From: Candidatus Velesiimonas alkalicola
GTDB lineage: Bacteria; Omnitrophota; Gorgyraeia; Velesiimonadales; Velesiimonadaceae
Assembly: GCA_013626165.1 (NCBI GenBank)
Contig: NDHX01000001.1
Span: 100,817 to 164,816 of the forward strand
DNA: 64,000 nt
Direction of reading: 5' to 3'
Part shown: positions 22,352 to 54,931 of the stretch, piece by piece
How positions within the stretch are numbered: the first letter of the stretch is position 1
Layout of the letters: each line of letters begins with the position of its first letter
The notes under the pieces: model-generated
Seen by the model: the letters and a program-made list of their open reading frames with translations, nothing else
Database searches by the model: none
What the model was told of the DNA's origin: nothing
Made by a program: the position numbers and the translations under genes

Positions 22352-22401
22352 CAGGAGATAGTAGGTGGGAGGTAGTAGGTAGGAAAGAAATAGGGGAAAG
22401 A

Positions 22402-22551
22402 ATGCAGGAGCAGATTATATTGGCTTGTGAAGTTTGTAAAAACAGAAATTATATATCTACCAAGAATAAAAAAAATATTCCGGATAGATTACAACATAAA
22501 AAATATTGTAGGATTTGTCGTAAACATACTGTTCATAAAGAAACCAAGTAG
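22402..22551 (+). CDS. rpmG: 50S ribosomal protein L33
   Basis: 49 aa, [41 protein letters not shown] (4 Cys). Below the 60-aa ORF-track cutoff, so found by hand. Confidence 0.85.
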
Positions 22552-22598
22552 GGTAGGACCGTCTTGCCCTGTATTTGCAAGACAGGCGCAGTGTTTAA

Positions 22599-22672
22599 AG
22601 GAGCGTCGGTTAATGGTAAACCACCGGTCTCCAAAACCGGAACTGCAGGTTCGATTCCTGTCGCTCCTGCCA
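22599..22672 (+). tRNA. tRNA-Trp (anticodon CCA)
   Basis: Acceptor AGGAGCG/CGCTCCT, anticodon stem CCGGT/ACCGG with loop CTCCAAA, T loop TTCGATT. 3' CCA is encoded. Confidence 0.88.
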
Positions 22673-22765
22673 TTCTGTAAAGTAAAAAACAAAGGGCAAT
22701 GAGAGTAAGTGACAATAGATTTTTTTATTTGTCACTTATTTATAATGTGTGGCAAGAGGATTGTA

Positions 22766-22948
22766 ATGAAAAAAATAGTCAATTTTATAGCAGAGGTAAA
22801 GGGCGAATTAAAAAAGGTTGGATGGTCAAATAAAAAAGAGTTGACATATTCAACAGGTGTTGTTACAATAATCTCTTTCTTTCTTGCTTTGATCATTGCA
22901 ATTGCAGATTGGTTTTTATCACATATAATAAGAATTATTATTCGTTGA
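22766..22948 (+). CDS. secE: preprotein translocase subunit SecE
   Basis: ATG after AGAGGA. FIAEVKGELKKVGW..KEL... followed by a single TM helix. Confidence 0.85.
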   Translation: MKKIVNFIAEVKGELKKVGWSNKKELTYSTGVVTIISFFLALIIAIADWFLSHIIRIIIR

Positions 22949-22957
22949 GGTAATTAA

Positions 22958-23530
22958 ATGACACAAAAATGGTATATAGTTCATACTCAGGCTAATACAG
23001 AAGAAAAGATTGAGAGGGAAATTAAAAGAGGCATAGAAGATGGAACCTTATCCGATTGTGTTTTTGATGTTATAGTTCCAAAAGAAAAGGTTCAAGAGGT
23101 AAAATCAGGAAAGAAGATAATAAAAGATCAAAAAATCTTTTTAGGTTATGTGCTTATTAAGATGGTTGACCTGTCTTTGCTTAAAAGTGAAGATGCGAGT
23201 TTGCGGAATATTGCACAAAGAGCGTTTCTGGCTGTAAGAAAGACATCAGGGGTCTCAAGTTTTATAAGTTCAGGTAAGAAGCCGGTTGCGATATCAGAAG
23301 AAGAGGTTGAAAAAATATTAAAAAAGACAGCAGAAACCAAAGAAAAGCCTACAATTAAACAGACCTTTTCGCAGGGTGAATCGGCAAGAATTAAGGAAGG
23401 TCCTTTTGAAAATTTTATGGGTACAATTGAGGAAGTCTATCCTGGTAAGGGAAGGTTGAAGGTTATGGTTGTAATATTTGGAAGGACAACCCCAGTTGAA
23501 CTGGAATATGGACAAGTGGAGAAAATATAA
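22958..23530 (+). CDS. nusG: transcription termination/antitermination factor NusG
   Basis: [14 protein letters not shown]-terminal domain. KOW C-terminus [20 protein letters not shown]. Confidence 0.9.
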
Positions 23531-23958
23531 TGGCAAAGAAAAAAATTACAGCACAGATCAAACTGCAGATACCAGCAGATGGAGCAAATCCAGCCCCACC
23601 TGTTGGTCCTGCACTTGGGCAGCATGGTGTAAATATTATGGAGTTTTGTAAAAGTTTTAATGCTGCCACAAAGGATAAGGGAGGAATGATTATTCCTGTT
23701 GTAATCTCAGTTTACGAAGATAAAAGTTTTACATTTATAATGAAAAGTCCCCCTTGTAGCGCTCTTTTAAAACAAGCCTGTGGACTTGCAAAGGGGTCCG
23801 GTCAACCCAACAAACAAAAGGTTGGCAAGATTACAAAATCACAGGTTAGAGAAATTGTAAAAATAAAAGCCAAAGATTTAAACGTATCTGATGAAGAGCA
23901 AACAATCCGTATTGTCGAAGGAACTGCAAGAAGTATGGGGATTGAGGTATCTGATTAA
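23530..23958 (+). CDS. rplK: 50S ribosomal protein L11
   Basis: [31 protein letters not shown]. Confidence 0.95.
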
Positions 23959-23961
23959 AGA

Positions 23962-24157
23962 AGGTGACTGGCATAAGAGGCAGGAGGTAGTAGGTAGTAG
24001 ATAGTAGGTAGGAGGTAGTAGGTAGTAGATAGTAGGTAGTAGGTAGGAGGTAGGATAAAAAATGGGGACTGGCGACTGGAACCCCGGGCACCAGGGTATC
24101 CTTCAGAACGGGGTTTGTATCTTCGGATACTTTCCGGGTGTGGCACTTCGGAGAACG
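23962..24157 (+). repeat. composite mosaic repeat: GGTGACTGG connector + (G[T/G]AG[G/A]TA)n heptamer array + GACTGG..GGCACCAG + module A (49-nt conserved hairpin block)
   Basis: Heptamers at 23983-24054. Module A cggggtttgtatcttcggatactttccgggtgtggcacttcggagaacg at 24109-24157 is identical to 46902-46950. Confidence 0.75.
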
Positions 24158-24188
24158 ACTAACAGTGAATGTTAACATAAAAACAGTG

Positions 24189-24887
24189 ATGAAAAAACAT
24201 AGTAAAAGATACGAAAAGATACTTTCTCAACTTCCGAAAGAAGAAAAAATTTGGAAGATAGCAGATGCGGTAAAGGTTTTAAAGGAATTACCACCTGTAA
24301 AATTTAATGAGACAGTGGCTCTTTCATTTAAGACGGACATAAATCCAAAACAGTCTGACCAGAATATAAGAGGAACGGTTGTTCTACCTAATGGCTTGGG
24401 CAGGAAGGTCAGGGTTGCGGTGTTTTGTAAGGGAGAGCATGAGAAGGCAGCAAAAGATGCAGGGGCAGATGTTGTAGGTGCAACAGACCTTGTAGAAAAG
24501 GTTGCTGGCGGATTTCTTGACTTTGATGTTGCAATTGCCACACCTGAAATGATGCGCGAAATGGGAAGGCTCGGTAAAGTGCTTGGTCCAAAAGGATTGA
24601 TGCCAAACCCAAAGGTAGGAACTGTTACAACAGATGTTGGAAAAGTGGTAAAAGAAGCAAAGGCCGGACGCGTTGAGTATCGTATGGATAAACAGGGCAA
24701 TATCCATGTGGCAGTGGGTAAGATTTCGTTTGAACCGAGTGCAATAGTTGAAAATGCTTCAACTGTTATAGAGTCGGTTTTTAAGGCAAGACCTGCTGCA
24801 TTAAAAGGACAATATATTAAAAGTATTCATATAGCAAAAACAATGGGCCCTGGTTTAAGGTTAGACATAAGTCAGTTCAAATTGTAA
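24189..24887 (+). CDS. rplA: 50S ribosomal protein L1
   Basis: MKKHSKRYEKI..., SDQNIRGTVVLPNGLGR. The upstream part of the listed ORF is read from repeat DNA. Confidence 0.9.
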   Translation: MKKHSKRYEKILSQLPKEEKIWKIADAVKVLKELPPVKFNETVALSFKTDINPKQSDQNIRGTVVLPNGLGRKVRVAVFCKGEHEKAAKDAGADVVGATDLVEKVAGGFLDFDVAIATPEMMREMGRLGKVLGPKGLMPNPKVGTVTTDVGKVVKEAKAGRVEYRMDKQGNIHVAVGKISFEPSAIVENASTVIESVFKARPAALKGQYIKSIHIAKTMGPGLRLDISQFKL

Positions 24888-24925
24888 GAGTCTGTGAGCA
24901 CAACCCCAATAGAACAGGTTCACTG

Positions 24926-25026
24926 GTGACAGGTAAAAGCCGTATATCGTATTCTGTATATCGTGAAAGAAACAGAGCACAGAATACGGACGACGGGTGA
25001 TGGAATACGGTATACGAAATACAAGT
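24926..25026 (+). promoter_or_regulatory. rplJ leader carrying a 10-bp inverted repeat (CGTATTCTGT / ACAGAATACG) and a GGAATACGGTATACGAAATACA motif
   Basis: Lies where L10(L12)4 autoregulatory leaders are usually found. The motif is shared with the rpsK upstream region. Confidence 0.35.
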
Positions 25027-25038
25027 ATGAGAAGTGGT

Positions 25039-25563
25039 ATGATAAGGTTTGATAAATCTTCTATGTTAGATGAGGTAAAGAGTTCTATTAAGGATGGGCA
25101 GGCTATATTTATTTTTAGGTATAAAGGGCTTCGCACATCAGAGCTTGAAGAATTAAGAAAAACTGTAAGGTTAAGTGGGAAAGTATTTGTATGCAAAAAT
25201 TCTATCCTTAAGGTTGCATTGAAAGATATAAGCCTTGAAAAAGCCGTTCAATTTGTAGAAGGTCCATCAGCAATTGCAGTTTCAACAACAGACCCTTGTG
25301 TTTTATCAAAAGATATTATTAAGTTTGCTTCAAATCATCCTGCGTGTGTTGTTTTGGGTGGAGTGCTTGGGAAGGAAGTACTTACGGCATCTGTTGTCAA
25401 GCAATTGGCAGGCCTGCCATCAAGACAAGAGATTCTTGGACAAGTGGCATGGACAGCGCAGTCTGCTGTTTATCACTTTATCTGGACTTTAAATGGAATA
25501 ATTTGTAAGTTTCTTTATGTAGTAGAACAAATTAAAAACATACCAGACCGTAAGGCAGAATAA
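25039..25563 (+). CDS. rplJ: 50S ribosomal protein L10
   Basis: [33 protein letters not shown] at 25039 is preceded by a purine-rich SD; 25027 is an alternative. Confidence 0.85.
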
Positions 25564-25580
25564 TAAAAGAAGGAGATGAT

Positions 25581-25991
25581 ATGTCAGAAATAAAGGTAGA
25601 AACACAGTCTGCATCTACAAAGGTAAATGAAATAGTAGAGGCAGTAGGTCAATTAAGTGTCCTTGAACTTTCATCGCTTGTGAAGGCTATGGAAGAAAAA
25701 TTTGGTGTCAGTGCCACTATGCCGGCTATAACATCTGCGGCAGGGCCATCTGCTGAGGCAAGGCCTTCTGCTGAGGAAAAAACAGCATTTGATGTTGTTC
25801 TTACGGATGCGGGCTCTCAAAAGATAGCGGTTATAAAAGAGGTAAGGGCTATCACAAGTCTTGGTTTGAAGGAGGCAAAAGACCTTGTTGAGGGAGCGCC
25901 TAAACCGGTAAAAACAGGCGTTTCAAAAGAAGAAGCAGAGAAGATAAAGAAACAGATTGAGGCAACAGGTGCAAAGGTAGAATTAAAATAA
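25581..25991 (+). CDS. rplL: 50S ribosomal protein L7/L12
   Basis: [19 protein letters not shown]... and C-terminal [23 protein letters not shown]... Confidence 0.93.
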
Positions 25992-26010
25992 AAGATTGAA
26001 AGGATATAAA

Positions 26011-29000
26011 ATGCAGGAATTAAAAAGTTTTGCAAAAATACCAGAGATTATGGATTTGCCTCACTTCTTAGATATACAGACCCAGCCTTATGAGGAATTT
26101 CTTCAAGGCTTTGTTCCCAAAAACAAGAGAAAGTCAGTGGGACTGCAAGAGGTTTTTGAAGAGTTTTTTCCTATGGAACTTCCGGACAAGGGGGTCAGGC
26201 TTGAGTTTTTAAGATATTCTCTTGAAAAACCGAGCCATACAATAGAGCAATGTTTGGCCGGAGGTTTTACATATGCAAGTCCTTTGAGGGCCCGTCTGAG
26301 GTTAAGAACAGGCAAAAGAGAAGTTGTAGAAGAGGATGTATATATATGCGACATTCCCTTGATGATGCCTACGGGTTCATTTATTATAAATGGTGATGAG
26401 AGAGTGGTGGTAAGCCAGCTTCACCGTTCTTCAGGTGTTTGTTTTGAAGAGTCGCCCCATCCGTCAGGGAAGATGTTGTATATTGCCCGTATTATACCGG
26501 ACAAAGGTTCCTGGATGGAGTTTGAGTTTGATATAAACGATTTGATGTATGTTCACCTTGATAGAAGAAAAAAATTTTATGTAACAACCCTGTTAAGAGC
26601 ACTTGGTTTTGAAACAGATGCCGATATTCTTAAAGAATTTTATCCGATTGAAGTGTTACACCTGAAAGACACAGTTATATCAAGTCTTGTCGGAAGAGTG
26701 TGTGCGAAAGATATTATTCATAAAAAAACGCAAGAAAAGATTGTTTCAACAGGTGAGTCTATCACAGTTGAGATGGTTTCACAATTAGAAGATGCAGGTC
26801 CTGTGTTTTCAGTATTTGACCTTTCATCTAAAAGACAGCTCTATAGCACTTTGGCAAGTGATCATCTTCATACCAAAGAAGATGCTCTTGTTGAGATATA
26901 CCATAAGATGCGTCCTATGGAGCCATCCACAGTTGATGGAGCAAGTGATATGTTAAAAAATAATTTTTTCAACAAGAAAAGATACCATCTTGGGAAGGTT
27001 GGCAGATTTATACTGAACAGAAAACTTAATATGAATGTTCCTTTTGATAATACAGCGCTTGATAAGGAAACAATAATCAATGTTATTAAATATCTTTTAA
27101 GTCTCAGAAACGGAGAGGGAAAAGTTGATGACATTGATCATCTCGGCAACAGAAGAGTAAAAACTGTTTGTGAGCTTGTTCAAAATCAGTTCAGGATTGG
27201 TTGCGCCAGACTTGAAAGAAATGTAAAAGATCGTATGGCGGCATATAGTAATGAAATGCTTCTTCCACACAATCTTGTTAATTCAAAAATAGTGTCTTCG
27301 GTAATAAAAGACTTTTTTGCAAGGAGTCAATTATGTCAGTTTATGGATCAGATAAATCTGCTCGCAGAACTAACACATAAAAGACGGTTAAGCGCGCTTG
27401 GCCCTGGTGGGCTTTCCAGAGAAAGGGCTGGTTTTCAGGTGCGTGATGTTCACCATTCGCACTATGGAAGGATATGTCCTATTGAAACACCGGAGGGTTC
27501 TAATGTCGGACTTATAGCATCGTTGGCAACATATGCGAGGATAAATGAGTTTGGTTTTATTCAGACCCCTTACAGGAAGGTGGTAGATGGGAAAGTAACC
27601 GGAAAGATAGAATATCTTTCAGCAGATATAGAGGACCAATATGTAATAGCTCAGGCAAACTCAAAAATAGATGAAGGCGGAAAATTTCTTGACGAAAGGG
27701 TTCTTTGTAGGGACAAGGGAAATTTTTCGCTTGTAGATCCAGAAGATATATCCTATATGGATGTTTCTCCGAAACAGATTGTAAGCGTTGCGGCAAGTCT
27801 TACTCCGTTTTTTGAACACAATGATGCGAACAGAGCGCTGATGGGTTCCAATATGCAAAGGCAGGCTGTTCCTCTTTTGCTTCCCGAAAGAGCGCTTCTT
27901 TCAACAGGTATTGAAGGCAGGATTGCAAAAGATGGTGGTGCTGTTGTAATTGCAAAAAAATCAGGTAAAGCAACAAGGGTTGAATCCGACAGGATAGTTA
28001 TTGACAATGAACAGTACACTTTAAAAAAGTTTATCCGTTCAAATTCTTCTACCTGTATTAATCAAAGACCTCTGGTTAAGGTAGGTGATAATGTCAAGGC
28101 AGGGGATATTATTGCAGATGGACCTGCTACAGACAATGGCGAACTTGCACTTGGCAGGAATATACTTGTTGCATTTATGCCCTGGTACGGTTATAACTTT
28201 GAGGATGCAATCGTAATAAGCAGAAAACTTGTCTCTGATGATTTATTGACCTCTATTCATATTGAAGAGTTTGAGGTTGAGGCGAGAGAAACCAGACTTG
28301 GTAACGAAGAAATAACAAGAGATATTCCAAATGTAGCAGAGGAAGCATTAAAAAATCTTGATGAAGAGGGAATTGTCCACATAGGTGCCGAGGTATCGGC
28401 TGGCGATGTTATTGTTGGAAAAATTACACCAAAAGGTGAAACAGAACTAACACCTGAAGAAAAACTGTTAAGGGCGATATTTGGGGAAAAGGCAAAAGAT
28501 GTAAAAGACTCATCACTTATTGTTCCACCCGGTGTTGAGGGGACAGTCGTAGATATAAAGGTGTTCTCAAGAAAGGATATATTAAAAGGTAAAAAGAAAA
28601 AGACATTAAAGATTGAGGAGATGCAGGCAATAGAATCTATCAGAAAGCACTATGAGACACAGATACAGCATCTTGTACTTGAAAAAAATAAAAAAGTTGC
28701 CTCCGTACTTTTGGGTAAAAAATTAACACAGAGCATAATAGATGAAGAAACAGGACAGATACTTATATCGTCGGGTAATTCCATTACAAAATCAGATTTG
28801 AAAAAAATTGAGACCGAATCCTGCGATGCATCAGATATACATATAAATAATGAAAAGGATTCTGCGGAACTTTATAAAATGGTGAAAATATTTGATGACC
28901 AGATATTAAGTTTAAGTTCGGAACAAAAAAGACAGACAGATAGAATAAAAAGGGGTGATGAACTCCCGACGGGTGTATTAAAAAGGGTTATCATATATAT

Positions 29001-32700: not shown

Positions 32701-33720
32701 TACACAATCTCAATAGTTTCAGAAGTATCAGGGCGTGTCCAGTATATGGATATAAGATCCGGTGTTACAATGCGTGAAGAATTAGACCCTGCCACAGGTA
32801 TCACAGGCCGTATTATTACAGAACACAAGGGAGATTATTATCCACAGATATTGATAAAAGATGAAAAAAATGAGATTCTTGCAACATATCCTGTCCCAAC
32901 AGGTGCTCATATAATGGTAGATGAAAAACAGGAAGTTGAAAGTGGCGATGTGATAGCAAAGACACCAAGAAAGATAACAAAGACAAAAGATATTACAGGT
33001 GGGCTTCCGAGGGTTGCAGAACTTTTTGAAGCAAGAAAGCCCAAGAACCCTGCGATAATAAGTGACATCTCAGGTGTTGTTGATTTTGGTCCTGCAAAAA
33101 GAGGACACAGAAGAATCATTGTAAAGAATCCTCAAACACAGGATGAAAGAGAATACCTTGTCCCGTCAGGGAAGCATATCCTTGTGTATAAAGGTGACAA
33201 TATAACAGCGGGACAGCAATTAACAGATGGCCCTGTTGTTTTACAGGATATATTAAAAACACTTGGAGATAAGGCGTTGCAAGAATATCTTGTTAATGAA
33301 ATACAGGAAGTATACCGTCTTCAGGGTGTTCGTATAAATGATAAACATATAGAAGTTATTGTTCGTCAGATGATGAGAAGAGTAAGCATTACAGACCCCG
33401 GTAATTCGGATTTTCAGGAAGGAATGCATGTTGATAAATTTAAGTTTAATGATGTGGTTACTGCATTAAAAAAGAAGAATAAAAATTTGCCTAAGGCCAT
33501 GCCAACACTTCTCGGTGTAACAAAAGCATCTTTAAGCACGGAAAGCTTTATCTCTGCTGCAAGTTTTCAAGAAACGACGCGTGTTCTTACAGAGGCGGCC
33601 TTAGCCGGTAAAAAAGATTTTCTCCTTGGATTAAAAGAAAATGTTATTATGGGGCATCTAATCCCAGCAGGGACAGGGTATCACTCACATCATGAATTTG
33701 AGATAGAAAGGGAAAAATAG
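29752..33720 (+). CDS. rpoC: DNA-directed RNA polymerase subunit beta'
   Basis: Zn finger CYCGKY...[25 protein letters not shown], and so on. The TAG stop is the first unit of the heptamer array. Confidence 0.95.
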
Positions 33721-33985
33721 TAGGTAGGAGGTAGTAGGTAGGAGGTAGGAGGTAGGAGGTAGGAGGTAGGAGGTAGGAGGTAGTAGGTAGTAGGTAGGAG
33801 GTAGGAGGTAGTAGGTAGGAGGTAGGGAAAAAAATGGTGACGGATGACTGGTGACAAGCGACTGGAACCCGGGCACCAGTGCACCAGAGCACCCTCTGGG
33901 TGGGGGTAAAACATAATCCCCCGACCCATCCTTTGGATGGGTGCCCCGCCCCTCCTTTTGTAAAGGAGGAGGGGTGGATTATGGT
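33718..33985 (+). repeat. composite mosaic repeat: heptamer array (33718-33826) + GGTGAC../GGCACCAG connector + module B (~70-nt three-hairpin element, 33912-33983)
   Basis: Module B core cataatcccccgacccatcctttggatgggtgccccgccc.tccttttgtaaag...ggggtggattat is shared with 41711-41783. Confidence 0.75.
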
Positions 33986-34023
33986 TTGAAAAAATTTGTG
34001 TCTAATAAAAAAGAAAGAATAAT

Positions 34024-34891: not shown

Positions 34892-35017
34892 TAAATACTC
34901 AGTCAACTGTGTTACCTGAAGGCACAAAGGCGCAAGGTGACAAAGGTACAAAGCATAAGAAAAGAATCTAAAAGGACAGTCCACTTTGTGCCTGTGTGCC
35001 TTAAGTGCCTCTGTGCC
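34892..35017 (+). repeat. 'AATACTCAGTCAACTGTGTTACCTGAAGGCACA' repeat plus GGCACA / TGTGCC inverted iterations
   Basis: The first 43 nt are near-identical to 18332-18375. This is followed by ggcacaaaggcgcaaggtgacaaaggtacaaagc ... ctttgtgcctgtgtgccttaagtgcctctgtgcc. Confidence 0.55.
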
Positions 35018-35142
35018 TAAAATATGAACTGAATTTAGTGAATATTTACGGTTTTCCTTTATTTTAAGATTCTAAACTTGCTGAACTAATGATGGAACAA
35101 AATATCTTATTAGAATTTAACAAAAAGGAATATAAAAATATT

Positions 35143-37218
35143 ATGGAAGTAAAATATACTTTACAAAAATTACGCAATGTAGGTATTATTGCACATATTG
35201 ATGCAGGGAAAACAACTACCACAGAGAGAATTCTCTATCATGCTGGAACCATTGATAGAATGGGAAATGTTGATGATGGAACAACACAGACAGACTGGAT
35301 GGTTCAGGAAAGGGAAAGAGGTATAACTATTACAAGTGCCTGTACCACCAGTTTTTGGAAAGACTGCAGAATAAACATCATAGATACACCGGGGCATATT
35401 GATTTTACCGTAGAGGTAGAAAGAAGTTTAAGGGTTCTTGACGGTGCGGTTGTGATATTCTGTGCTGTAGGAGGAGTTGAGTCTCAATCTGAAACAGTAT
35501 GGAGACAGGCAGATAGGTATCATGTTCCAAGGATTGCTTTTATTAATAAAATGGACAGGATAGAAGCAGATTTTTTTGGAACCCTGAAACAGATACAACA
35601 AAGACTTGGCGCAAATGCAGCAGCGGTTGAGATACCCATAGGGGTTGGACAAAATTTAGAAGGTGTTATAGACCTTATTAAAATGAAATCTCTTATCTAT
35701 GATATTAAAGACATTACAGGTAGATTTAAGGTTGGTTCAGTTTCACCTGACCTTTTAGAAATGGCAAAACTGTATCGCGCAAAACTTATTGAGTCTGTCG
35801 CAGAGACCGATAAAAATATTATGGAAAAGTTTTCGCACGATCAGGAAATAAAAGAAGGAGAACTATCATCTGCCATAAGAAGACAGACGATAGCAGGAAA
35901 GTTTGTTCCGGTTCTTTGCGGTTCATCACTTAAAAATATAGGTGTTCAACCTATTTTAGATGCAGTTGTAGACTGGTTGCCAAGCCCGGTTGATGTCCCC
36001 CCTGTTCAGGGGATTGTTCAGGGTAAAGATGTAATAGAACAAAGGAAAGCATCGGATGATGAGTATTTTTCTGCACTTGCATTTAAGATAATGATAGATC
36101 CATATGTTGGAAAACTCACATTTTTAAGGGTCTATTCAGGCATACTAAAATCAGGTTCCTACATATATAACGTAAGCAGGGACAAAAAAGAAAGAATTGG
36201 AAAACTTCTTAAAATGCATGCAAACAGGCAGGAAATAATTGAAGTGGTAAAAACTGGAGATATTGCTGCTGCTGTAGGACTAAGAGAAACAAAAACGGGT
36301 GATACCATATGTGATGAACAACATCCTGTAATCCTTGAGTCCATGCATTTGCCACAGCCTGTTATATCCCTTGCAATTGAACCTTTGACAAGACAGGATC
36401 AGGATAAACTTTCTCTTGCACTTTCAAGATTGCAGGACGAAGACCCTTCGTTTTGTGTTTCTTATAATGAAGAGACGGCACAGACGCTTATTTTGGGTTT
36501 TGGAGAATTGCATCTTGAAATAATTGTTGACAGATTGAAAAGAGAATTCAATGTTCAGACACAGGTTGGAAAACCGCATGTTGCATATAAAGAAACATTG
36601 ATTAAACCTGTAAGACAGGAAGGAAAGTTTGTGCAGCAGAGCGGCGGGCGTGGACAGTATGGGCATGTCGTATTTGAGATAGAGCCCATAGAAAGAGGTT
36701 CAGGAATAGTGTTTGAAAGTGCGCTACGCGGAACAAGTATACCCAGAGAATATGTTCCCTCTATAGAACAGGGAGTAATAGAATCCGCACAGACAGGACC
36801 TTTGGGAGGATTTCCTGTTGTAGATGTAAAGGTAGTGCTTATAGATGGCTCATACCATGAAGTAGATTCTTCAACATTCGCATTCAAGATGGCAGGCTCT
36901 ATCGGATTTAGCGCAGCACTTAGATCGGGGGGTTCAATGCTCCTTGAGCCTATTATGGATGTGGAGGTTGTGGTTCCTGAGGAATATTTAGGCGATGTAA
37001 TTGCTGATATGGGAGCTCGCAGGGCAAAGATAGAACAACTTTCACAGAGAGGCAATGTCCGTGTTATAAGAGGATTTATTCCTCTTTCAGAGCTTTTTGG
37101 ATATGCAACTGCTGTTCGTTCTGTAAGTCAGGGAAGGGCATCATATGTAATGCAGCCAGCATATTATGCAGAGGTTCCAAAAAATATAAAAGAAAAAATA
37201 CTTAAAGGCAAAAAGTAA
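35143..37218 (+). CDS. fusA: elongation factor G
   Basis: Start at MEVKYTLQKLRNVGIIAHIDAGKTTTTERILY, aligned to the EF-G N-terminus. The listed ORF starts 18 codons earlier. Confidence 0.93.
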   Translation: MEVKYTLQKLRNVGIIAHIDAGKTTTTERILYHAGTIDRMGNVDDGTTQTDWMVQERERGITITSACTTSFWKDCRINIIDTPGHIDFTVEVERSLRVLDGAVVIFCAVGGVESQSETVWRQADRYHVPRIAFINKMDRIEADFFGTLKQIQQRLGANAAAVEIPIGVGQNLEGVIDLIKMKSLIYDIKDITGRFKVGSVSPDLLEMAKLYRAKLIESVAETDKNIMEKFSHDQEIKEGELSSAIRRQTIAGKFVPVLCGSSLKNIGVQPILDAVVDWLPSPVDVPPVQGIVQGKDVIEQRKASDDEYFSALAFKIMIDPYVGKLTFLRVYSGILKSGSYIYNVSRDKKERIGKLLKMHANRQEIIEVVKTGDIAAAVGLRETKTGDTICDEQHPVILESMHLPQPVISLAIEPLTRQDQDKLSLALSRLQDEDPSFCVSYNEETAQTLILGFGELHLEIIVDRLKREFNVQTQVGKPHVAYKETLIKPVRQEGKFVQQSGGRGQYGHVVFEIEPIERGSGIVFESALRGTSIPREYVPSIEQGVIESAQTGPLGGFPVVDVKVVLIDGSYHEVDSSTFAFKMAGSIGFSAALRSGGSMLLEPIMDVEVVVPEEYLGDVIADMGARRAKIEQLSQRGNVRVIRGFIPLSELFGYATAVRSVSQGRASYVMQPAYYAEVPKNIKEKILKGKK

Positions 37219-37259
37219 AGTGACTGGTGCCTGATGCACTGGCAAACAGGAGGTAAAAA

Positions 37260-38462
37260 ATGGCAAAAGAAAAATTTCTCAGGACAAAACCGCATGTAAA
37301 TGTAGGGACCATAGGACATGTTGACCATGGAAAAACAACACTGACAAGTGCAATAACAAAAGTATTATCTAGCAAGGGATTGGCTCAGGCAAAGACATTT
37401 GAAGAAATAGATAATGCGCCTGAGGAAAGAGAAAGAGGAGTAACAATAAATGTACACCATGCGGAATATCAAACACAGAACAGGCACTATGCACATGTGG
37501 ACTGTCCAGGTCACGCAGACTATATAAAGAATATGGTTACAGGAGCGGCACAGATGGACGGAGCAGTATTAGTGGTAAGTGCAGTAGATGGTCCTATGCC
37601 GCAGACAAGAGAACACATACTTTTGGCAAGACAGGTGGGAGTTCCTGCAATGGTGGTGTTCTTAAACAAAACAGATGCAGTAGAAGATAAAGAATTAGTA
37701 GATTTAGTTGAAATGGAAGTGCGAGATTTATTAAGCAAATATGAGTTTCCTGGGGATAAGATACCGGTGGTAAGAGGAAGTGCATTAAATGCAATGAACT
37801 GTGGATGTAGCAAAGATGATTGTCCAAACTGCAAGTCCATACTGGAATTGATGTCAGCAGTAGATAGCCATATACCTGAGCCTGTAAGAATAACGGACAG
37901 GGCATTTTTAATGTCCGTAGAAGATGTATTTAGCATAAGCGGCAGAGGAACAGTAGGAACAGGAAGAGTAGAAAGAGGAATAGTCAAAGTAGGAGAAGAA
38001 GTAGAAATAGTAGGGATACAGACAGAGAGCAGAAGGACAGTAGTAACAGGGGTAGAGATGTTCAGGAAGTTGTTAGACGAAGGAAGAGCAGGAGACAACA
38101 TAGGGGTATTGTTAAGAGGGATAGAAAAAAAAGACTTAGAAAAAGGGATGGTCATATCGGCACCAAATACAATAACGCCACACACACAATTCAAGGCACA
38201 GGTATATGTATTAACAAAAGAAGAAGGTGGAAGACACACACAATTTTTCAGCGGCTACAGGCCTCAGTTTTTCTTCAGGACAACAGATGTAACAGGAGTA
38301 ATAACATTACCGCAAGGAACAGAAATGATAATGCCTGGCGACAATGTATCTGTAACAGTAGATCTGATAGTACCTGTGGCAATGGAAAAAGAGCAAAGAT
38401 TTGCAATCCGCGAAGGAGGAAAGACAATAGGAGCAGGCGTGGTAACAGAGATAATAAAATAA
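37260..38462 (+). CDS. tuf: elongation factor Tu (copy 2, str-operon position)
   Basis: Identical to copy 1 except A vs V at one position (gca vs gta). Confidence 0.95.
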
Positions 38463-38467
38463 CAGGA

Positions 38468-38549
38468 GATAGTAGGTGGGAGGTAGTAGGTAGGAAAGAA
38501 ATATTTTTTCCTATCTACTACCTACTATATCCTACCTCCTATATTTTTT
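38468..38549 (+). terminator. intrinsic terminator built from a heptamer array and its inverted copy, followed by TTTTTT
   Basis: gatagtaggtgggaggtagtaggtagg ...loop... cctatctactacctactatatcctacctcctata then tttttt. This is the only place in the window where the heptamer occurs as its reverse complement. Confidence 0.6.
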
Positions 38550-38864: not shown

Positions 38865-39012
38865 GTCTGCTGAAAAACTCATCAGACCTTAAAATCGGTG
38901 TAATCTTTCCAAAATCTGTGTAATCAGGGCTTACTGGATGTGTTAATATAACACAGTAAGCCCAGTCTTTAAGAGCACCAGAGCACCAGAGCACCAGTGC
39001 ACCAGTTATAGA
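38865..39012 (+). repeat. spacer with two hairpins (GGTCTG..CAGACC; GGGCTTACTG..CAGTAAGCCC) and a (GAGCACCA)x4 octamer array
   Basis: Read directly. The octamers are the reverse complement of the TGGTGCTC family. Confidence 0.6.
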
Positions 39013-41511: not shown

Positions 41512-41518
41512 AAGAAAC

Positions 41519-41790
41519 AGTAGGTAGTAGATAGTAGATAGTAGGTAGTAGGTAGTAGGTAGTAGGTAGTAGGTAGTAGGTAGTAGGTAGTAGGTAGTAG
41601 ATAGTAGGTAGTAGGTAGTAGATAGGAGATAGTAGGTAGGAAAAAAAATGGTAACTGGTGACCGGTGACTGGAACCCCGGGCACCAGGGCACCCTTTGGG
41701 CAGGAGAAAACATAATCCCCCGACCCATCCTTTGGATGGGTGCCCCGCCCTTCCTTTTGTAAAGAAAGGCAGGGGTGGATTATCTTTTCT
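41519..41790 (+). repeat. composite mosaic repeat occupying the canonical rpsS slot: heptamer array (41519-41640) + GGTAACTGGTGACCGGTGACTGG/GGCACCAG connector + module B
   Basis: Module B at 41711-41783 is shared with 33912-33983 and differs by a few changes inside the hairpins. Confidence 0.75.
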
Positions 41791-41811
41791 AGGATTTAAT
41801 GGGGAATTGAC

Positions 41812-42180: not shown

Positions 42181-42215
42181 TAGTAGATAGTAGGTAGTAG
42201 GTAGTAGGTAGGAGA
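42181..42215 (+). repeat. heptamer array (TAGTAGATAGTAGGTAGTAGGTAGTAGGTAGGAGATGGAGGT) supplying the SD for rpsC
   Basis: GGAGGT lies 6 nt before the GTG start of rpsC. Confidence 0.65.
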
Positions 42216-42227
42216 TGGAGGTAAAAT

Positions 42228-42872: not shown

Positions 42873-43030
42873 ATAGGTAAAAACAAGTAGGTAGTAGATA
42901 GGAAAGAATAACCAATAACCAAGTTCTAAACACCAGGCGCTAAACAATAATCAATTTTTCAAATCCCAATTATCAAACTTTGGAATTTTTTATTTCTCAA
43001 ATTGGTGTGTTTTTATGAAGGGGAGTTGAT

Positions 43031-45993: not shown

Positions 45994-46066
45994 CAGGTGA
46001 CAGGTGACCGGTGCACTGGTGCACTGATGCACTGATGCACTGATGCACTGGTGCACTGGTGCACTA
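45994..46066 (+). repeat. GGTGACAGG + octamer array (GCACTGRT)x7
   Basis: caggtgacaggtgaccggtgcactggtgcactgatgcactgatgcactgatgcactggtgcactggtgcact. Confidence 0.75.
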
Positions 46067-46635: not shown

Positions 46636-46659
46636 AAATTAGTATCTAGTAGATAGAGG

Positions 46660-46950
46660 AAAAAATGGTGACTGGCATAAGAGGCAGGAGGTAGTAGGTA
46701 GTAGATAGTAGGCAGTAGATAGTAGGTAGTAGATAGTAGGTAGTAGATAGTAGGTAGGAGGTAGGATAAAAAATGGGGACTGGCGACTGGAACCCCTGGC
46801 ACCAGGGTATCCTTCAGATGGGGGGGGGATTATGTTTTGAATTTATTTGTAATTTGAGATTTGTTTAAGATTTCCTCGTTAGAAGTAAAAAAACTTCTAA
46901 ACGGGGTTTGTATCTTCGGATACTTTCCGGGTGTGGCACTTCGGAGAACG
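46660..46950 (+). repeat. composite mosaic repeat: GGTGACTGG connector + heptamer array (46677-46766) + GACTGG..GGCACCAG + G-run + module A (46902-46950)
   Basis: The first ~150 nt are near-identical to 23962-24100. Module A is identical to 24109-24157. Confidence 0.75.
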
Positions 46951-46982
46951 GTCTCTACGGTAAATATTGTTTATGGGGGCAC

Positions 46983-47339: not shown

Positions 47340-47350
47340 AGGGGGTTAAT

Positions 47351-48386: not shown

Positions 48387-48536
48387 GTTTATACCAAAGT
48401 AGGATTTTCTTGGACAGGACAATAAAAGAAGATATAGGAGATAGTTTCATGGGGACAAGTTTTTTCGTCATTCCACGATTCAATAGGTCCTGCCTGCCAG
48501 TGTGCATAGCGGGGAATCCAGGCATAAAGGAGTGAT

Positions 48537-49871: not shown

Positions 49872-49883
49872 GATAATTTTTTA

Positions 49884-50588: not shown

Positions 50589-51348
50589 AAATAAACAGCA
50601 GATACATTTTATTGAAAATGCCTGCAAGATTGTTGTAGATACAATGAGAATGTTAAGGCATCACTTAAAACCCGGTGTAACGACCTTATATCTTGATGAA
50701 ATTGCCAATAAACATATTTGTTCTTTTGGTGCTGTTTCTGCATTTTGGGGATATAGCGGAAATGAAAAACATACAATGAAACCATATCCCGGTCATATCT
50801 GCACATCTATCAATGACGAGGTTATCCATGGAATACCCAACAACAGGGTTCTTAAAAATGGGGATATAATAAGCATAGATATTGGAGTATGTTATAAAAA
50901 CTGGTACGGGGATATGGCGTGGACATTCCCTATCGGGGATATAAGTAAAGAGACACAAAAATTATTAGATGTAACAAAACAGGCGTTGTATGCAGGAATA
51001 AAACAAGCAAGAAAAGAAAACAGGCTTTATGATATTTCAGCCGCAATACAGAATTGTGTTGAGAGAGAAAATTTCTCTGTTGTCCGACAATTTGTAGGGC
51101 ATGGTGTGGGTAAGTCTCTTCATGAGGAACCCCAGATACCAAACTTTAAAGATAAGGGCAATGGCCCGAGATTAGAACCGGGAATGGTATTTGCAATAGA
51201 GCCGATGACAAATGCAGGTGTCTCTGATGTCCTAATACTTGATGACGGCTGGACTGCTGTAACAAAGGATGGAAAGATTTCCGCACATTTTGAACATACA
51301 GTATGTATTACAGATGAAGAACCCCAAATCTTAACACAGTGGGAATAG
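50575..51348 (+). CDS. map: type I methionine aminopeptidase
   Basis: Pita-bread fold motifs. FVGHGVGKSLHEEPQIPN. Confidence 0.92.
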   Translation: MIPVKNKQQIHFIENACKIVVDTMRMLRHHLKPGVTTLYLDEIANKHICSFGAVSAFWGYSGNEKHTMKPYPGHICTSINDEVIHGIPNNRVLKNGDIISIDIGVCYKNWYGDMAWTFPIGDISKETQKLLDVTKQALYAGIKQARKENRLYDISAAIQNCVERENFSVVRQFVGHGVGKSLHEEPQIPNFKDKGNGPRLEPGMVFAIEPMTNAGVSDVLILDDGWTAVTKDGKISAHFEHTVCITDEEPQILTQWE

Positions 51349-51360
51349 TAAAAGGAATCT

Positions 51361-51576
51361 ATGCCAAAAGAAGAAGCAATTGAGGTTGAGGGCAAAATTA
51401 TAGAATCTCTTCCAAACGGGATGTTCAGGGTTGAACTTGATAATGGACATCGTTTACTTGCACACCTTAGCGGGAAGATGAGACTTAATTATATAAAACT
51501 ATTGCCGGGTGATCGTGTAAAAATGCAGGTGTCTCCTTACGACCTAAATAAGGGAAGGATAGTTTATAGAATATGA
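51361..51576 (+). CDS. infA: translation initiation factor IF-1
   Basis: [32 protein letters not shown]. Confidence 0.93.
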
Positions 51577-51578
51577 AA

Positions 51579-51607
51579 TAGTAGGTAGTAGGTAGGAGGT
51601 AGGGGGG
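51579..51607 (+). repeat. heptamer array (TAGTAGGTAGTAGGTAGGAGGTAGGGGGG) forming the SD of rpmJ
   Basis: Read directly. Lies between the infA stop and the rpmJ ATG. Confidence 0.65.
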
Positions 51608-51612
51608 AAGTT

Positions 51613-51726
51613 ATGAAAGTTCGATCATCAGTTAAAAGAATTTGTGAAAAATGTAAGATTGTAAGGCGTCAAGGTGTTGTAAGGGTGATATGTAAGATAC
51701 CAAAACATAAACAAAGGCAGGGATAA
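51613..51726 (+). CDS. rpmJ: 50S ribosomal protein L36
   Basis: 37 aa [37 protein letters not shown]. Below the ORF-track cutoff. Confidence 0.85.
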
Positions 51727-51777
51727 ACAATGAAACAAGATGACTGGTGCTCTGGTGCCCTATAATTGGGGGGAGAA

Positions 51778-52173
51778 ATGCCGAGAATCTCAGGTGTTGA
51801 TGTTTCAAAAGATAAAAGAATAGAAATCGGATTAATGACGATATACGGTATAGGTAGGGCTTTATCTAATCGTATATTACAGGAGGCACAGATAAATCCA
51901 GGTAAGAAAGGAAAAGAGTTATCAGCTGAAGAAGTTTCTCGCATATCTTCTATCATACAGAAGTCTTACAGGGTTGAAGGAGAATTAAGACGGGAAACAT
52001 CAGGGAATATAAAACGTCTTATGGATATAGGTTCCTACAGAGGAACGCGCCATAAAAAAGGACTTCCAGTGCGTGGCCAGAGGACTCATACAAATGCAAG
52101 GACACGCAAAGGACCTAAAAGAGGCATAAGACTGAAGAAAAAAACGGTATCAGCAGGAGCGTCAAAAACATAG
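51778..52173 (+). CDS. rpsM: 30S ribosomal protein S13
   Basis: MPRISGVD...[14 protein letters not shown]...[32 protein letters not shown]. Confidence 0.9.
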
Positions 52174-52311
52174 TATGTAGTAGATAGGTAAAAGATGTAT
52201 ATCGTTGTCCGTCGTACGTATACCGTATAAAGAAAAAGAAGTGGAATATAATATACGGAATACGAAATACAGGTGTTTGGGATTTGTAATTTATCAGAAA
52301 AGGGGGATTAA

Positions 52312-52749
52312 GTGGAAGAGCAACAAGAAAATTCTAAAAAAGTACACCCTGACACTCCTGGTGTAGGTGCCCAAAAAAAAGGGAAAAAGAAGATCACAAG
52401 GGTAGTAGGTAGCGGTGTTGCGCACATTCAGGCAAGTTTCAACAACACAATAATCAGTATTACAGATAAGACAGGCAATACTGTTGCGTGGGCAAGTGCA
52501 GGCAGTGCTGGTTTCAGTGGTTCAAGAAAATCTACGCCTTTTGCTGCACAGATTGCTGCAAGCCATGCAGCAAAAAAAGCGCTTGATTGTGGTGTAAAAG
52601 AAGTGGAGATTTGCGTAAAAGGTCCGGGCGCCGGAAGAGAGTCTGCTATAAGGGCTTTGCAGGCAGGCGGTCTTCATATAACAATAATAAAAGATAAAAC
52701 ACCGGTACCGCATAATGGTTGTCGTCCACCAAAAAGAAGAAGGGTGTAG
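52312..52749 (+). CDS. rpsK: 30S ribosomal protein S11
   Basis: GTG after [28 protein letters not shown]...[19 protein letters not shown]. Confidence 0.92.
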
Positions 52750-52767
52750 ATTACAGAGAGGGTATAA

Positions 52768-53397
52768 ATGTCAAGATATACAGGACCATCCTGTCGTCTT
52801 TGCAGAAGAGAAGGGATAAAGCTTTTCTTAAAAACATCCAGATGTACAACGGGAAAATGTGCATTTGATAGAAGACAGTATATTCCCGGACAGCATGGGA
52901 AAAAGGGGAAATCAAAATTATCTAATTATGGGTTACAACTTCGTGAGAAGCAGAAACTAAAAAGGCTGTATGGTATTGGTGAGACCCAGTTTAAGAATTA
53001 TTTTTTAAAAGCCGCAAAGAAAAGAGGTATTACAGGTGTAATGTTGTTGCAACAATTGGAGACCAGATTAGACAATGTTATATTCAGGGCATGTTTTTCA
53101 GGAACCCGTGGTGAAGCCAGGCAGATAGTAAGGCATGGCTTTGTTGTAGTTAACGACCAGAAGGTTAATATTCCTTCATTTCTTGTAAAACCGGGTGACA
53201 GATTCAAAATAGTGGGAAAGGAAAATGTTATAAACAAGGTAAAACAAACCGCAGAGATTGTTAAGTCCAGGGGAGTTCCTTCATGGCTTAATGTTCATCT
53301 TGATACACTTGAAGGGGAGGTATCAAGACCTCCGGACAGGGCTGATATTCAGGTTCCGGTTAATGAGCAGACGATAGTAGAATTATATTCTAAATAA
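52768..53397 (+). CDS. rpsD: 30S ribosomal protein S4
   Basis: [22 protein letters not shown]-terminal S4 domain. Confidence 0.93.
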
Positions 53398-53423
53398 CCT
53401 ATATAACTAAAACAGGGGGAATA

Positions 53424-54407
53424 ATGGGAGTGGTCTGGAAAGGTTTTGAGATACCACAAAGACTTGAATGTGATGAGGATACATATACGTCAACATATGG
53501 AAAATTTATTGCAAAACCATTTGAAATAGGATATGGTGTAACAGTCGGCAATTCTCTAAGAAGAGTACTTCTTTCTTCGCTAGAAAGTTCGGCTGTTACA
53601 GGTGTTTGTATTGAAGGTGTTCGGCACGAATTTTCAACCATACCGGGGGTTACAGAAGAAGCTATACAGATTATACTTAACCTTAAGAAGCTTGTTTTAA
53701 AATCTCATTCTCCGAGTCCAAAACGGATTTATCTTAAAGCCCAAGGACAGAAAGAGATGTTTGCTTCTGATATTATAACAGATGAAACGATTGAAATATT
53801 GAATCCGGAACTTCACATTGCAACGCTGGGGAAAGATGCATCTTTGAATATGGAAATAGAAGTGGGAAGAGGAAGAGGATATGTTCCAGCAGAAAAAAAT
53901 AAAAAACAACATCAGCCAATAGGTTGGATTGCTGTTGATTCTGTTTTTACCCCCGTTGTAAAGGTGAATTATTTTGTGGAGAATACCCGTGTGGGTAAGG
54001 TAACGGACTATGAAAAGTTGATACTTAATATCTGGACAAACAAGGCAATTACACCGAAGGATGCAATAGTATCTGCTGCCCGAATATTACAAAGACATTT
54101 TGATATATTTACAATCTATCAGCCCGCAGAAGAGGAGAGACTTGAGGAAAAGAAAATAGATGTTGAGACAGTGGAAAAACTTCATATGTCGGTTTCTGAT
54201 CTTGAACTTTCTGTCCGAAGCACTAATTGTTTTAAAGAGGCCAATATTAAAACCATTGGAGAGCTTGTGACCAAGACCGAAGAAGAATTACTTTGTTTCA
54301 GAAATTTTGGTAAAAAGTCACTTGTAGAGATCAAAGATATATTGCAAAGCATGGGACTTTCATTGGGGATGAAAAAGGAAGAACAGGAGAATAGGTATGA
54401 GACATAG
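53424..54407 (+). CDS. rpoA: DNA-directed RNA polymerase subunit alpha
   Basis: [34 protein letters not shown]-terminal CTD. Confidence 0.95.
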
Positions 54408-54879
54408 AAAGGATAATAAAAGACTTTCACGCACCACAGGACATAGAACAGCAATGGTAAGAAATATGGCAACCAGCCTTTTTGAAAATGAAAAAATTAC
54501 AACAACTGTTCAGAAGGCAAAATTTTCAAGAAGGTTTATTGAAAAACTCATAACATTTGGAAAAAAAAATACACTTGCTGCAAGAAGAATGACTGAAAAA
54601 ATGCTTGGTAAAAAAAACATTGTCCATATGCTTTTTAGTGAAGTTGCGCCCTTATTTGCCAATAGACAGGGAGGATATACAAGAATTGTAAAAAGCAAAT
54701 TCAGGGCAGGTGATGGGGCACAATTATGTGTATTTGAACTTGTAGAAAAAAGGCAGAAGTCTATTGAACAGCCAGAGCAGGCTGTAGATAAGAAGACTGT
54801 AGAAAAACATCCCACTCAACCTACAGAAGAAAAAAAAGGTGCAATTAAAAAAATAAAGAGAATATTCCACAGAAAATAG
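54397..54879 (+). CDS. rplQ: 50S ribosomal protein L17
   Basis: [25 protein letters not shown]. The TAG stop is the first heptamer unit. Confidence 0.93.
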
Positions 54880-54931
54880 TAGGTGGTAGATAGTAGGTAG
54901 TAGATAGTAGATAGTAGGTGGTAGATAGTAG
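54877..54931 (+). repeat. heptamer array (TAGTAGGTGGTAGATAGTAGGTAGTAGATAGTAGATAGTAGGTGGTAGATAGTAG)
   Basis: Read directly, downstream of rplQ. Confidence 0.7.

Follow-up and report, generated by a model that had tools for sequence, protein, structure and literature searches.

The stretch of DNA analyzed here (64,000 nucleotides (nt) of contig NDHX01000001.1 from Candidatus Velesiimonas alkalicola, hereafter the window) carries, between 21 and 55 kb, one co-directional gene cluster in the order tRNA-Thr, tuf, rpmG, tRNA-Trp, secE, nusG, rplKAJL, rpoBC, rpsL, rpsG, fusA, tuf, followed by the S10, spc and alpha operons. The spacers of this cluster hold tandem arrays of a heptanucleotide, G(T/G)AG(G/A)TA, which are the subject of this study. 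Comparison of the window proteins with NCBI nr identified the species as the metagenome-assembled genome (MAG) 'bacterium Unc6' (hereafter Unc6), a member of the Omnitrophota from the serpentinizing, hyperalkaline springs of The Cedars, and the top named homologues of S19 and RpoC were likewise those of Candidatus Omnitrophota. Four Cedars metagenome assemblies, identified via PMC7005843, contain contigs near-identical to the window. Within the cluster, rpmD (encoding L30) was not found by tblastn. An Rfam search of window positions 21000-56000, at the gathering threshold and at E<=1, detected no ribosomal-protein (r-protein) leader or other known cis-regulatory RNA, yielding only tRNAs and sub-threshold generic hairpin matches.

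Tandem Repeats Finder (TRF), together with a pattern search, placed 10-11 arrays of this heptamer with a period of 7 nt on the + strand, in spacers of the tuf-rpoBC-str-S10-spc-alpha region. The arrays comprise 2-17 units held in 7-nt phase, and TRF described them with a period of 7, 3-17 copies and 76-94% matches. The dimer pattern GKAGRTAGKAGRTA was matched 59 times, against an expectation of 0.01 derived from 100 dinucleotide-preserving shuffles, and 58 of these 59 matches fall on the + strand, which is the coding strand. An earlier note on this DNA had listed at least eleven arrays of 3-16 units, all co-oriented with transcription save for one inverted copy. All eleven sites exist and the statement on orientation is borne out; the sizes, however, extend from 2 to 17 units, the site at 52171 is degenerate, and the arrays at 22354 and 38465 amount to one event. 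The heptamer sites of the window are listed below, tuf1 and tuf2 being the two tuf copies.

22354-22384, + strand: tuf1 array, 4 units plus GGA (GGAGATA GTAGGTG GGAGGTA GTAGGTA GGA), 2 nt past the TAA stop; the rpmG start lies 18 nt downstream.
23983-24055, + strand: array of the rplK-rplA spacer, 10 units with a 28-nt higher-order period; flanks confirmed in strain BBPF.
33718-33826, + strand: rpoC array, 15.5 units, the first TAG being the rpoC stop; GGAGGTA accounts for 10 of the 15 full ones.
38465-38495, + strand: tuf2 array, 4 units, a copy of the tuf1 array.
38509-38541, - strand: inverted heptamer copy, pairing with 38465-38495; a T-run at 38544-38549 abuts the rpsJ Shine-Dalgarno (SD) sequence.
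41520-41641, + strand: rplB array, 17 units, beginning 8 nt past the rplB TAA stop.
42181-42223, + strand: rplV array and rpsC SD; 4-5 units straight after the rplV TAA, with the SD GGAGGT at 42217-42222.
42887-42903, + strand: rpsC array, 2 units, 14 nt past the rpsC stop; identical in three strains.
46649-46766, + strand: rplF-rplR spacer, with 11 units at 46687-46766 (one of them GTAGGCA) and, ahead of these, a mini-array at 46649-46662.
51579-51604, + strand: infA array, 3 units, 2 nt past the infA stop, running into GGGGGG (the likely rpmJ SD).
52171-52192, + strand: rpsM site, 2-3 degenerate units (TAGTATG TAGTAGA TAGGTAA), opening with the rpsM stop.
54877-54931, + strand: rplQ array, 7-8 units, the first TAG being the rplQ stop; leuC comes next, with a likely start at 54975.

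The tuf1 and tuf2 arrays (22354 and 38465) count as one event because both lie inside a 1325-nt duplication (21068-22392 and 37179-38503) that spans tuf plus 81 nt on its upstream side and 41 nt on its downstream side; a single mismatch separates the two copies, and this near-identity suggests recent gene conversion. Across 80 tallied units, GTAGGTA occurs 35 times, GGAGGTA 18 times and GTAGATA 16 times, with 11 other units. Since GTAGGTA and GTAGATA outnumber GGAGGTA, the variant that matches the SD perfectly, the consensus of the family is TAG-R-TAG. GGAGGTA makes up 22% of the units, and 10 of its 18 copies are found in a single array, the one after rpoC. In addition, higher-order periods of 14 and 28 nt were recognized within arrays. 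The three principal units also differ in their predicted pairing with the 16S rRNA: duplexes with a generic anti-SD tail, assumed because the host 16S gene lies outside the window, reached -11.6 kcal/mol for GGAGGUA, -5.5 for GUAGGUA and -1.5 for GUAGAUA, while the genuine SDs of the window scored -8.4 to -11.7 kcal/mol against the same generic tail.

The arrays are tied to the ends of the upstream genes rather than to the starts of the downstream ones, beginning 0-24 nt past the upstream stop and ending at a distance of 4 to ~200 nt from the next start. The stops of rpoC, rplQ and rpsM are themselves the first TAG of the array, and the rplV TAA runs directly into TAG TAG; the infA and tuf arrays begin 2 nt past the stop, and the remaining non-abutting arrays 8-24 nt past it. 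When the related species described below is included, 8 of 15 arrays start at most 3 nt from a stop, several of them supplying it in frame as TAG-TAG or TAA-TAG-TAG. The earlier proposal that the first unit supplies or abuts a TAG stop thus stands for rpoC and rplQ, to which rpsM can be added, but not for rplB, where the stop is TAA and a further 8 nt intervene. Two TAG triplets per unit close all three sense frames within ~8 nt, and the antisense strand contains no stops, hence the long spurious minus-strand open reading frames (ORFs) that run across the arrays.

Downstream genes, for their part, have separate SDs (GGAGG or GGGGGA, 5-8 nt before the start), such as tgggggaaagagATG for rpsJ and cagggggaataATG for rpoA. 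At most one unit per array comes near the position expected of an SD (about 4-10 nt before the start), this being the rpsC SD, which adjoins the rplV array and is offset from its phase by 1 nt; all other units lie far from starts. In the case of rpmJ, 12 nt separate the last GGAGGTA from the ATG, and GGGGGG, 5 nt upstream, is the likelier SD. The assertion that the last unit serves as the functional SD of rpsC and rpmJ consequently needs correction at both genes. All arrays end with TAGG(A/G) followed by an A-run, which resembles the ordinary stop/SD junction of this genome (approximately TAG-GGG-AAA...ATG, as in AAATAGGGGAAAGAATG before rpmG). A mini-ORF after the arrays (GGA-A-run-ATG-GTGAC, encoding MVTGDR*) was considered and rejected, the ATG being absent from the copy at 23963 and from a BBPE copy, and the frames differing between copies.

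As RNA, the arrays were predicted to be unstructured in both orientations, with a minimum free energy (MFE) of 0 or no better than that of shuffled sequences. The MFE of the rpoC array is 0 when G-quadruplexes (G4) are disallowed, and -46.5 kcal/mol with the G4 option, which predicts runs of two-layer G-quadruplexes. This prediction was obtained for the GGAGGTA-rich rpoC array alone, and we therefore rejected G-quadruplex formation as a general property of the arrays. The inverted copy and the tuf2 array (38465-38549) are predicted to pair as a hairpin (-43 kcal/mol, z = -4.96), behind which stands UAUAUUUUUU. Of the claim that the inverted copy builds a terminator, the hairpin is thus borne out and TTTTTT comes after it, but the element is missing from the output of a consensus terminator scan, because an interrupted extension separates the perfect stem from the U-run. 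On this modeling basis, the tuf2 hairpin could plausibly terminate transcription between the str operon and the S10 operon.

A comparison of strains was made with contigs of the four Cedars metagenomes (BBPD, BBPE, BBPF and BBPG) and of several assemblies from the Sequence Read Archive (SRA), of which DRR0931xx and SRR8194967 appear to be DNA libraries, judging from experiment accessions DRX086601, DRX086602 and SRX5014375 rather than from run-level matches. In these contigs, the genes are 99-100% identical to those of the window and the spacers differ. The rplV-rpsC spacer has one unit fewer in BBPG (40 versus 47 nt), where the rplF-rplR spacer is also 27 nt shorter (317 versus 344 nt). The units of the post-rplQ array differ in DRR093103 and SRR21423783, and L17 differs at its C-terminus in BBPE (160 versus 161 amino acids). 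Moreover, a 57-nt insertion after rpsJ (38866-38921) is present in the window and absent from BBPD, and an 82-nt insertion in the rplF-rplR spacer (46813-46894) is absent from BBPE. The check on array length among related strains that had been proposed earlier therefore returned polymorphism, at rplV-rpsC and rplF-rplR, and the reading that had been held in reserve—slippage-prone short tandem repeats (STRs)—gains from it, as both copy number and unit sequence vary between strains at least 99% identical in the flanking genes.

The arrays also interfere with assembly. Many draft contigs end, or have N-gaps, exactly at arrays, with breaks at the start of the rpoC array in two contigs (L250 and L251) and in the rplF-rplR spacer in BBPE and BBPF. 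Two Cedars datasets in the literature consist of 101- and 151-nt paired reads (PMC6305446); if short reads also underlie the MAG, the copy numbers given for the 105- and 119-nt arrays may be unreliable in their exact values. In the window, rpsS (encoding S19) is missing between rplB and rplV (41512-41811), whereas contigs of the same species (L148, 1-640; L150, 16-303; L246, 3198-3818) have rpsS with a composite repeat element, as described below, on each side, and with an array of its own after the rpsS stop. Sequence comparison indicates that rpsS was probably lost from the window through assembly collapse or through recombinational deletion between the two composites, and that the 17-unit rplB array probably represents the two arrays seen on either side of rpsS in other strains, fused or collapsed into one.

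Some arrays belong to these larger composite elements. Four spacers continue from the array into an A-run linker GGAAAAAAAATGG, then into (GTGACNG)n heptamers and then into a GCACCAG-type segment, to which two of the four add a GC-rich double hairpin, 80 nt long and with inverted ends of 12 nt. The linker, (GTGACNG)n, GCACCAG and hairpin modules can be aligned in six copies, with the order of the modules fixed, in the manner of copies of miniature inverted-repeat transposable elements (MITEs) or of repetitive extragenic palindromes and bacterial interspersed mosaic elements (REP/BIME). The hairpin module occurs at 33908-33987 and 41708-41783, with a third copy in contig L246. Furthermore, the rplK-rplA spacer and, 22 kb away, the rplF-rplR spacer have ~190 nearly identical nt in common (23964-24157 and 46668-46965), array included, and differ by one unit and the 82-nt insertion; the flanks of both were confirmed in other strains. 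The shared sequence includes 50 nt, directly upstream of rplA and of rplR, in which two UUCG-type hairpins (ACGGGGTTTGTATCTTCGGATACTTTCCGGGTGTGGCACTTCGGAGAACG) occur and which gave no Rfam leader matches. In BBPE, the element upstream of rplV (L149, 1-254) joins the linker and GTGAC segment of the rpoC-rpsL version to the hairpin of the rplV version, indicating either an element produced by recombination or a chimeric assembly. Equivalent spacers are filled by non-SD 7- and 8-mer arrays (AGAGCACC, GGTGCACT and AAGGCACA among them), which provide an internal control in the form of other STR families; within a single direction of transcription in the window, the 8-mer family is present in both orientations. 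These additional features are as follows.

33827-33907, + strand: linker and second-repeat modules after the rpoC array, GGGAAAAAAATG, (GTGACNG)n and GAACCCGGGCACCAG(N)GCACC, part of the six-copy alignment; fold no better than shuffles.
33908-33987, + strand: GC-rich double-hairpin module, ATAATCCCCC...GGGGTGGATTAT, terminator-like, -50 kcal/mol, z = -5.3; the terminator scan lists 33946-33977.
34919-35019, + strand: non-SD 8-mer arrays between rpsG and fusA, (AAGGCACA)4 and inverted (TGTGCCTA)4; hairpin of -46.3 kcal/mol, z = -4.6.
38972-39005, + strand: non-SD 8-mer array between rpsJ and rplC, (AGAGCACC)4, the reverse complement of the array at 46010.
41642-41783, + strand: linker, (GTGACNG)n and GCACCAG segment with the second copy of the GC-rich hairpin; hairpin module at 41708-41783, -37.6 kcal/mol, z = -3.4.
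46010-46065, + strand: non-SD 8-mer array between rpsH and rplF, (GGTGCACT)7.

The inverted 8-mer pair between rpsG and fusA sits within a stretch that ordinarily forms a single operon. Relatives, too, have short arrays in inverted pairs, namely in the rplW-rplB spacer of contig L247, after rpoC in L248, and in L194, L221 and L230.

Protein searches with S19 and RpoC, combined with contig look-ups, led to a relative in JGI 3300045482 (r-proteins 68-80% identical, RpoC 81%) that has the same heptamer family. Its arrays of GTAGATA and GTAGGTA, all of them sense, follow tuf, rplC, rpoB, rpoC and rpsL; four of the five supply a TAG stop, none of the 19 units is GGAGGTA, and all end with TAGGG(G) and an A-run. 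Just before rpsL, the rpoC array of this relative is followed by an inverted array and TTTT (contig L248, 9305-9403), the same hairpin design as at the Unc6 tuf2 gene. Only the post-tuf position is common to the two species, and where a spacer has an array in one species, the other has 8-15 nt or overlapping genes, as with rplV and rpsC, which overlap in the relative. The relative shares the heptamer, but its hairpin element differs. Present in both species, the heptamer family must be old in the clade; with only the post-tuf position shared, individual arrays have been gained and lost, and the relative's lack of GGAGGTA implies that SD identity is not the conserved feature of the family. In one of its contigs (L247, 4304-6146), secY directly follows rpsC and the rplP-rplO block is absent, through either a real rearrangement or a further repeat-mediated collapse of the assembly.

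Beyond this species, a scan of JGI metagenomes with S3 found no relative closer than ~62% identity; the Omnitrophota relatives it recovered (~59-62% identical) have fewer, unrelated 7- and 8-mer arrays, some of them in the rplV-rpsC spacer. A search with a four-unit pattern gave, among the matches listed, more than 120 stretches in many phyla, including Cyanobacteria, Bacteroidota, Planctomycetota and Campylobacterota, and the pattern was also found in 26 viral contigs. Among the matches listed from other phyla (85 arrays), 26 were sense and 28 antisense between co-directional genes, and 17 versus 17 in short spacers, and this even split refutes a general orientation rule for the heptamer.

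We read the arrays, with moderate confidence, as clade-specific, slippage-prone heptanucleotide simple-sequence repeats that settle at stop codons, and not as dedicated ribosome-binding pads. The view that they are in essence tandem SD arrays is not supported by the analysis: 78% of the units are not canonical SDs, the arrays are anchored at stops, the downstream genes have separate SDs, the relative has no GGAGGTA among its 19 units, non-SD arrays occupy equivalent spacers, and the heptamers of other phyla favor neither orientation. On sequence grounds, GGAGGTA is a derived variant, found only in the Unc6 species, and the basic unit is TAG-R-TAG. The data show that the arrays exist, how they are oriented and anchored at stops, their modular setting, their polymorphism between strains, the occurrence of the family in a second species and the absence of predicted structure; a slippage origin, the reasons for the fixed orientation and any effect on expression are what we infer. 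Slipped-strand mispairing would generate the arrays and change their length; the seed was probably the stop-codon/SD junction that is usual where operons are tightly packed, because the array ends (TAGG(G/A) and an A-run) resemble that junction; and recombination would copy arrays between spacers, as modules of the larger mosaic elements. In sense, the RNA of an array is free of C, unstructured and equipped with a stop in every frame, so that it could replace the stop of the upstream protein without being able to extend or disturb it. In antisense, the array would put a stop-free, C-rich, anti-SD-like sequence (UACCUAC or UACCUCC, the latter being the 16S tail motif) into essential mRNAs, where it could pair with SDs or load Rho. 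The opposite orientation may accordingly be retained only where it is paired with a sense array as a long hairpin at an operon boundary.

Several observations weigh against this reading in its purely neutral form. The translation cluster has arrays in 11 of its 43 spacers, the flanking DNA in none of ~34 (Fisher p = 0.0017), the flanking set being ~39 kb of non-translation genes of the same organism (window 1-21 kb and 55-64 kb, and 8 kb upstream from contig L241); pure neutral slippage does not predict such enrichment. All 15 solo arrays of the two species are sense-oriented, against the even split in other phyla and the two orientations of the 8-mer family in the window, a strictness implying that some strand-specific selection or mechanism acts here, the nature of which we can only surmise; as all arrays lie in a single co-directional cluster, the transcription strand and the replication strand are inseparable. 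Short arrays are stable, the 3-unit infA-rpmJ array being identical in eight assemblies. Lastly, by sequence comparison, the family has outlived a divergence to ~75% r-protein identity, a long survival for a neutral microsatellite.

Functional readings were therefore weighed alongside slippage. As an aid to translation initiation, an array would hold 30S subunits or post-termination ribosomes (as in standby or re-initiation) and pass them to the next cistron across structured spacers. The predicted single-strandedness of the arrays is what a standby site calls for, and the strongly folded modules (-50 and -37.6 kcal/mol) that follow arrays in long spacers reproduce the standby geometry (compare PMC5934652 and PMC6690012). 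The GGAGGUA duplex energy with the generic anti-SD tail and the enrichment of arrays in the translation cluster fit as well, and GGAGGTA, with a share of 22% among all units, is the last full one at the 3' end of 5 of 10 arrays. We nevertheless consider such a role unlikely: more than three quarters of the units (78%) are weak or non-SD, the relative dispenses with GGAGGTA altogether, non-SD arrays fill equivalent spacers, the downstream ribosome-binding sites (RBSs) are A-rich or have their own SD and are not visibly sequestered, and array positions are not conserved between species, the array-bearing rplV-rpsC spacer corresponding to overlapping genes in the relative. In its boldest form, which we regard as speculative and rather doubtful, the idea would be that an Omnitrophota clade evolved a sense-only UAG-R-UAG element at the stops of its most highly expressed translation genes as a dedicated intercistronic ribosome-handling module—closing all frames, keeping terminating ribosomes or 30S subunits on a C-free, unstructured tract that also excludes Rho across long structured spacers, and forming an operon terminator when joined by an inverted copy.

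The closure of all three sense frames within ~8 nt, with none closed in antisense, the start of 8 of 15 arrays at or within 3 nt of a stop that several of them supply, and the identity of the genes concerned (tuf, rpoB, rpoC and r-protein genes) would also suit a fail-safe termination wall, in which TAG-R-TAG directly after the stops of highly expressed genes would halt ribosomes that have read through or shifted frame, whichever frame they are in, within a few codons. For this purpose, however, two or three units would suffice, leaving 10-17 units unexplained; other spacers have stop-free arrays such as AGAGCACC; and neutral processes give stop-anchoring too, since any ORF that enters an array ends there. 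We accordingly rate the wall as improbable. Little credence, to our mind, attaches to the notion that the heptamer array is a mere module of a mobile or recombining mosaic of MITE or REP/BIME type, its distribution reflecting element insertion or conversion: 6 of the 10 arrays (after tuf, rplV, rpsC, infA, rpsM and rplQ) stand alone without other modules, the relative combines the heptamer with a different hairpin element, and no target-site duplications and no transposase or REP-associated tyrosine transposase (RAYT) gene were seen, these not having been searched for. Such a mosaic would account for the shared order of array, A-run linker, (GTGACNG)n, GCACCAG and hairpin with 12-nt inverted ends (ATAATCCCCC/GGGGTGGATTAT) in the six aligned copies, for the ~190 nt common to two spacers 22 kb apart, and for the 82-nt and 57-nt insertions that are polymorphic between strains. 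Finally, a platform acting at the RNA level, be it a multivalent site for a CsrA-, KH- or S1-type protein or a G-quadruplex in the rpoC array that affects mRNA stability or processing, strikes us as most improbable. It could draw on the two-layer G4 runs predicted for the rpoC array, on the GGA motif that recurs every 7 nt there, and on the binding of S1, cold-shock protein (Csp) or CsrA that MacGregor proposed for the TAACTGA repeats of marine Beggiatoaceae (PMC4679880); but the G4 is predicted in one array only, with uncertain energies for two-layer models, GTAGGTA and GTAGATA lack GGA, and no candidate binding protein was identified.

If the arrays are merely tolerated microsatellites, even the most conserved and compact operons (S10, spc and rpoBC) can be colonized by stop-rich heptamers in one orientation. 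Stop-rich heptamers in r-protein operons had been described earlier in giant sulfur bacteria and are now found in a second phylum, in a slow-growing organism of a hyperalkaline, energy-poor habitat; their recurrence in two distant lineages makes the modulation of translation by such repeats worth testing. In practical terms, the arrays break short-read assemblies and probably cost the MAG contig its essential rpsS, a point of importance to estimates of completeness and to r-protein phylogenomics.

The Unc6 genome generally abounds in short tandem repeats. Beyond the cluster, unrelated 7- and 8-mer intergenic arrays occur at 5969-6001 (unit TAGTCCA), at 8594-8667 (AGGTGAC, TGGCTGA and AAATGCC in series) and at 63768-63801 (TGCTCTGG). 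A 9-nt repeat, ATAGAAGAG, is present in 8.6 copies at 61099-61176, within an ORF (59881-61185) whose reading frame a 9-nt unit would keep; this ORF is part of an Amuc_1098/1101-like type IV pilus cluster, in which two secretin genes stand in tandem.

How, then, do the Unc6 heptamers compare with repeats described elsewhere? REP/BIME elements are modular combinations of short repeats and hairpins that occur in many copies in enterobacterial operon spacers, sometimes serving as terminators or mRNA stabilizers. The composite elements of Unc6 are alike in combining short repeats and hairpins as modules copied among operon spacers, but contain no REP palindrome, and BIMEs, for their part, are not known to have tandem heptamer arrays. 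Cyanobacterial short tandemly repeated repetitive (STRR) heptanucleotides, which Mazel and colleagues are said to have reported in 1990, reportedly form several tandem heptamer families in the intergenic DNA of one genome, mixed with small repeats. They belong to another taxon and have other units: the host here is a member of the Omnitrophota, its rpoC is not split and its unit differs, and STRR sequences are said to have neither stop anchoring nor a link to r-protein operons. Nor do the arrays correspond to phase-variation contingency loci, lying as they do 3' of essential translation genes, inside operons or at their ends. The long single-stranded stretch upstream of folded RNA recalls the standby sites that de Smit and van Duin modeled (compare PMC5934652, PMC6690012 and PMC3936740), yet these are functionally defined sites that rescue a sequestered RBS and are not known to be tandem repeats, and the downstream RBSs here are not visibly sequestered.

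Closer counterparts exist among long simple sequence repeats (LSSRs) and in the Beggiatoaceae, and the earlier statement that no element of this kind had been described does not hold, since both heptanucleotide LSSRs and the TAACTGA repeats are on record (PMC4679880); a literature search on the whole-genome shotgun (WGS) prefix and on 'Unc6' found no paper on the Unc6 arrays. Within the 5-11 nt class of prokaryotic LSSRs, heptanucleotide units predominate (Mrazek et al. 2007, in the summary given by PMC4679880). As far as that summary goes, the Unc6 arrays are LSSRs: tandem repeats of a unit within the 1-11 nt range, head-to-tail 7-nt units far beyond chance, intergenic, sporadic across phyla, and changing in copy number between closely related strains. 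They depart from LSSRs, as so summarized, in being strictly sense, stop-anchored, concentrated in the translation cluster and embedded in mosaics. The TAACTGA repeats of marine Beggiatoaceae are overwhelmingly forward-oriented and are unstructured, have stops in the forward frames only and occur in r-protein operons (fusA, L3 and S4 among others) (MacGregor 2015, PMC4679880); some of their arrays reach into the end of the ORF upstream, and a role in translation has been put forward for them but not tested (PMC4679880). TAACTGA sets, in turn, comprise 2-6 copies and mostly end 1 nt before the start codon, in the place of the RBS (PMC4679880), whereas Unc6 arrays reach 17 units, begin at the stop and leave the RBS to a separate SD, with another unit in another phylum and one perfect-SD variant. 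What the two systems have in common is nevertheless extensive, for the Unc6 heptamers too are sense-oriented, carry stops in the forward frames only, form no predicted RNA structure, lie in r-protein operons and overlap ORF ends.

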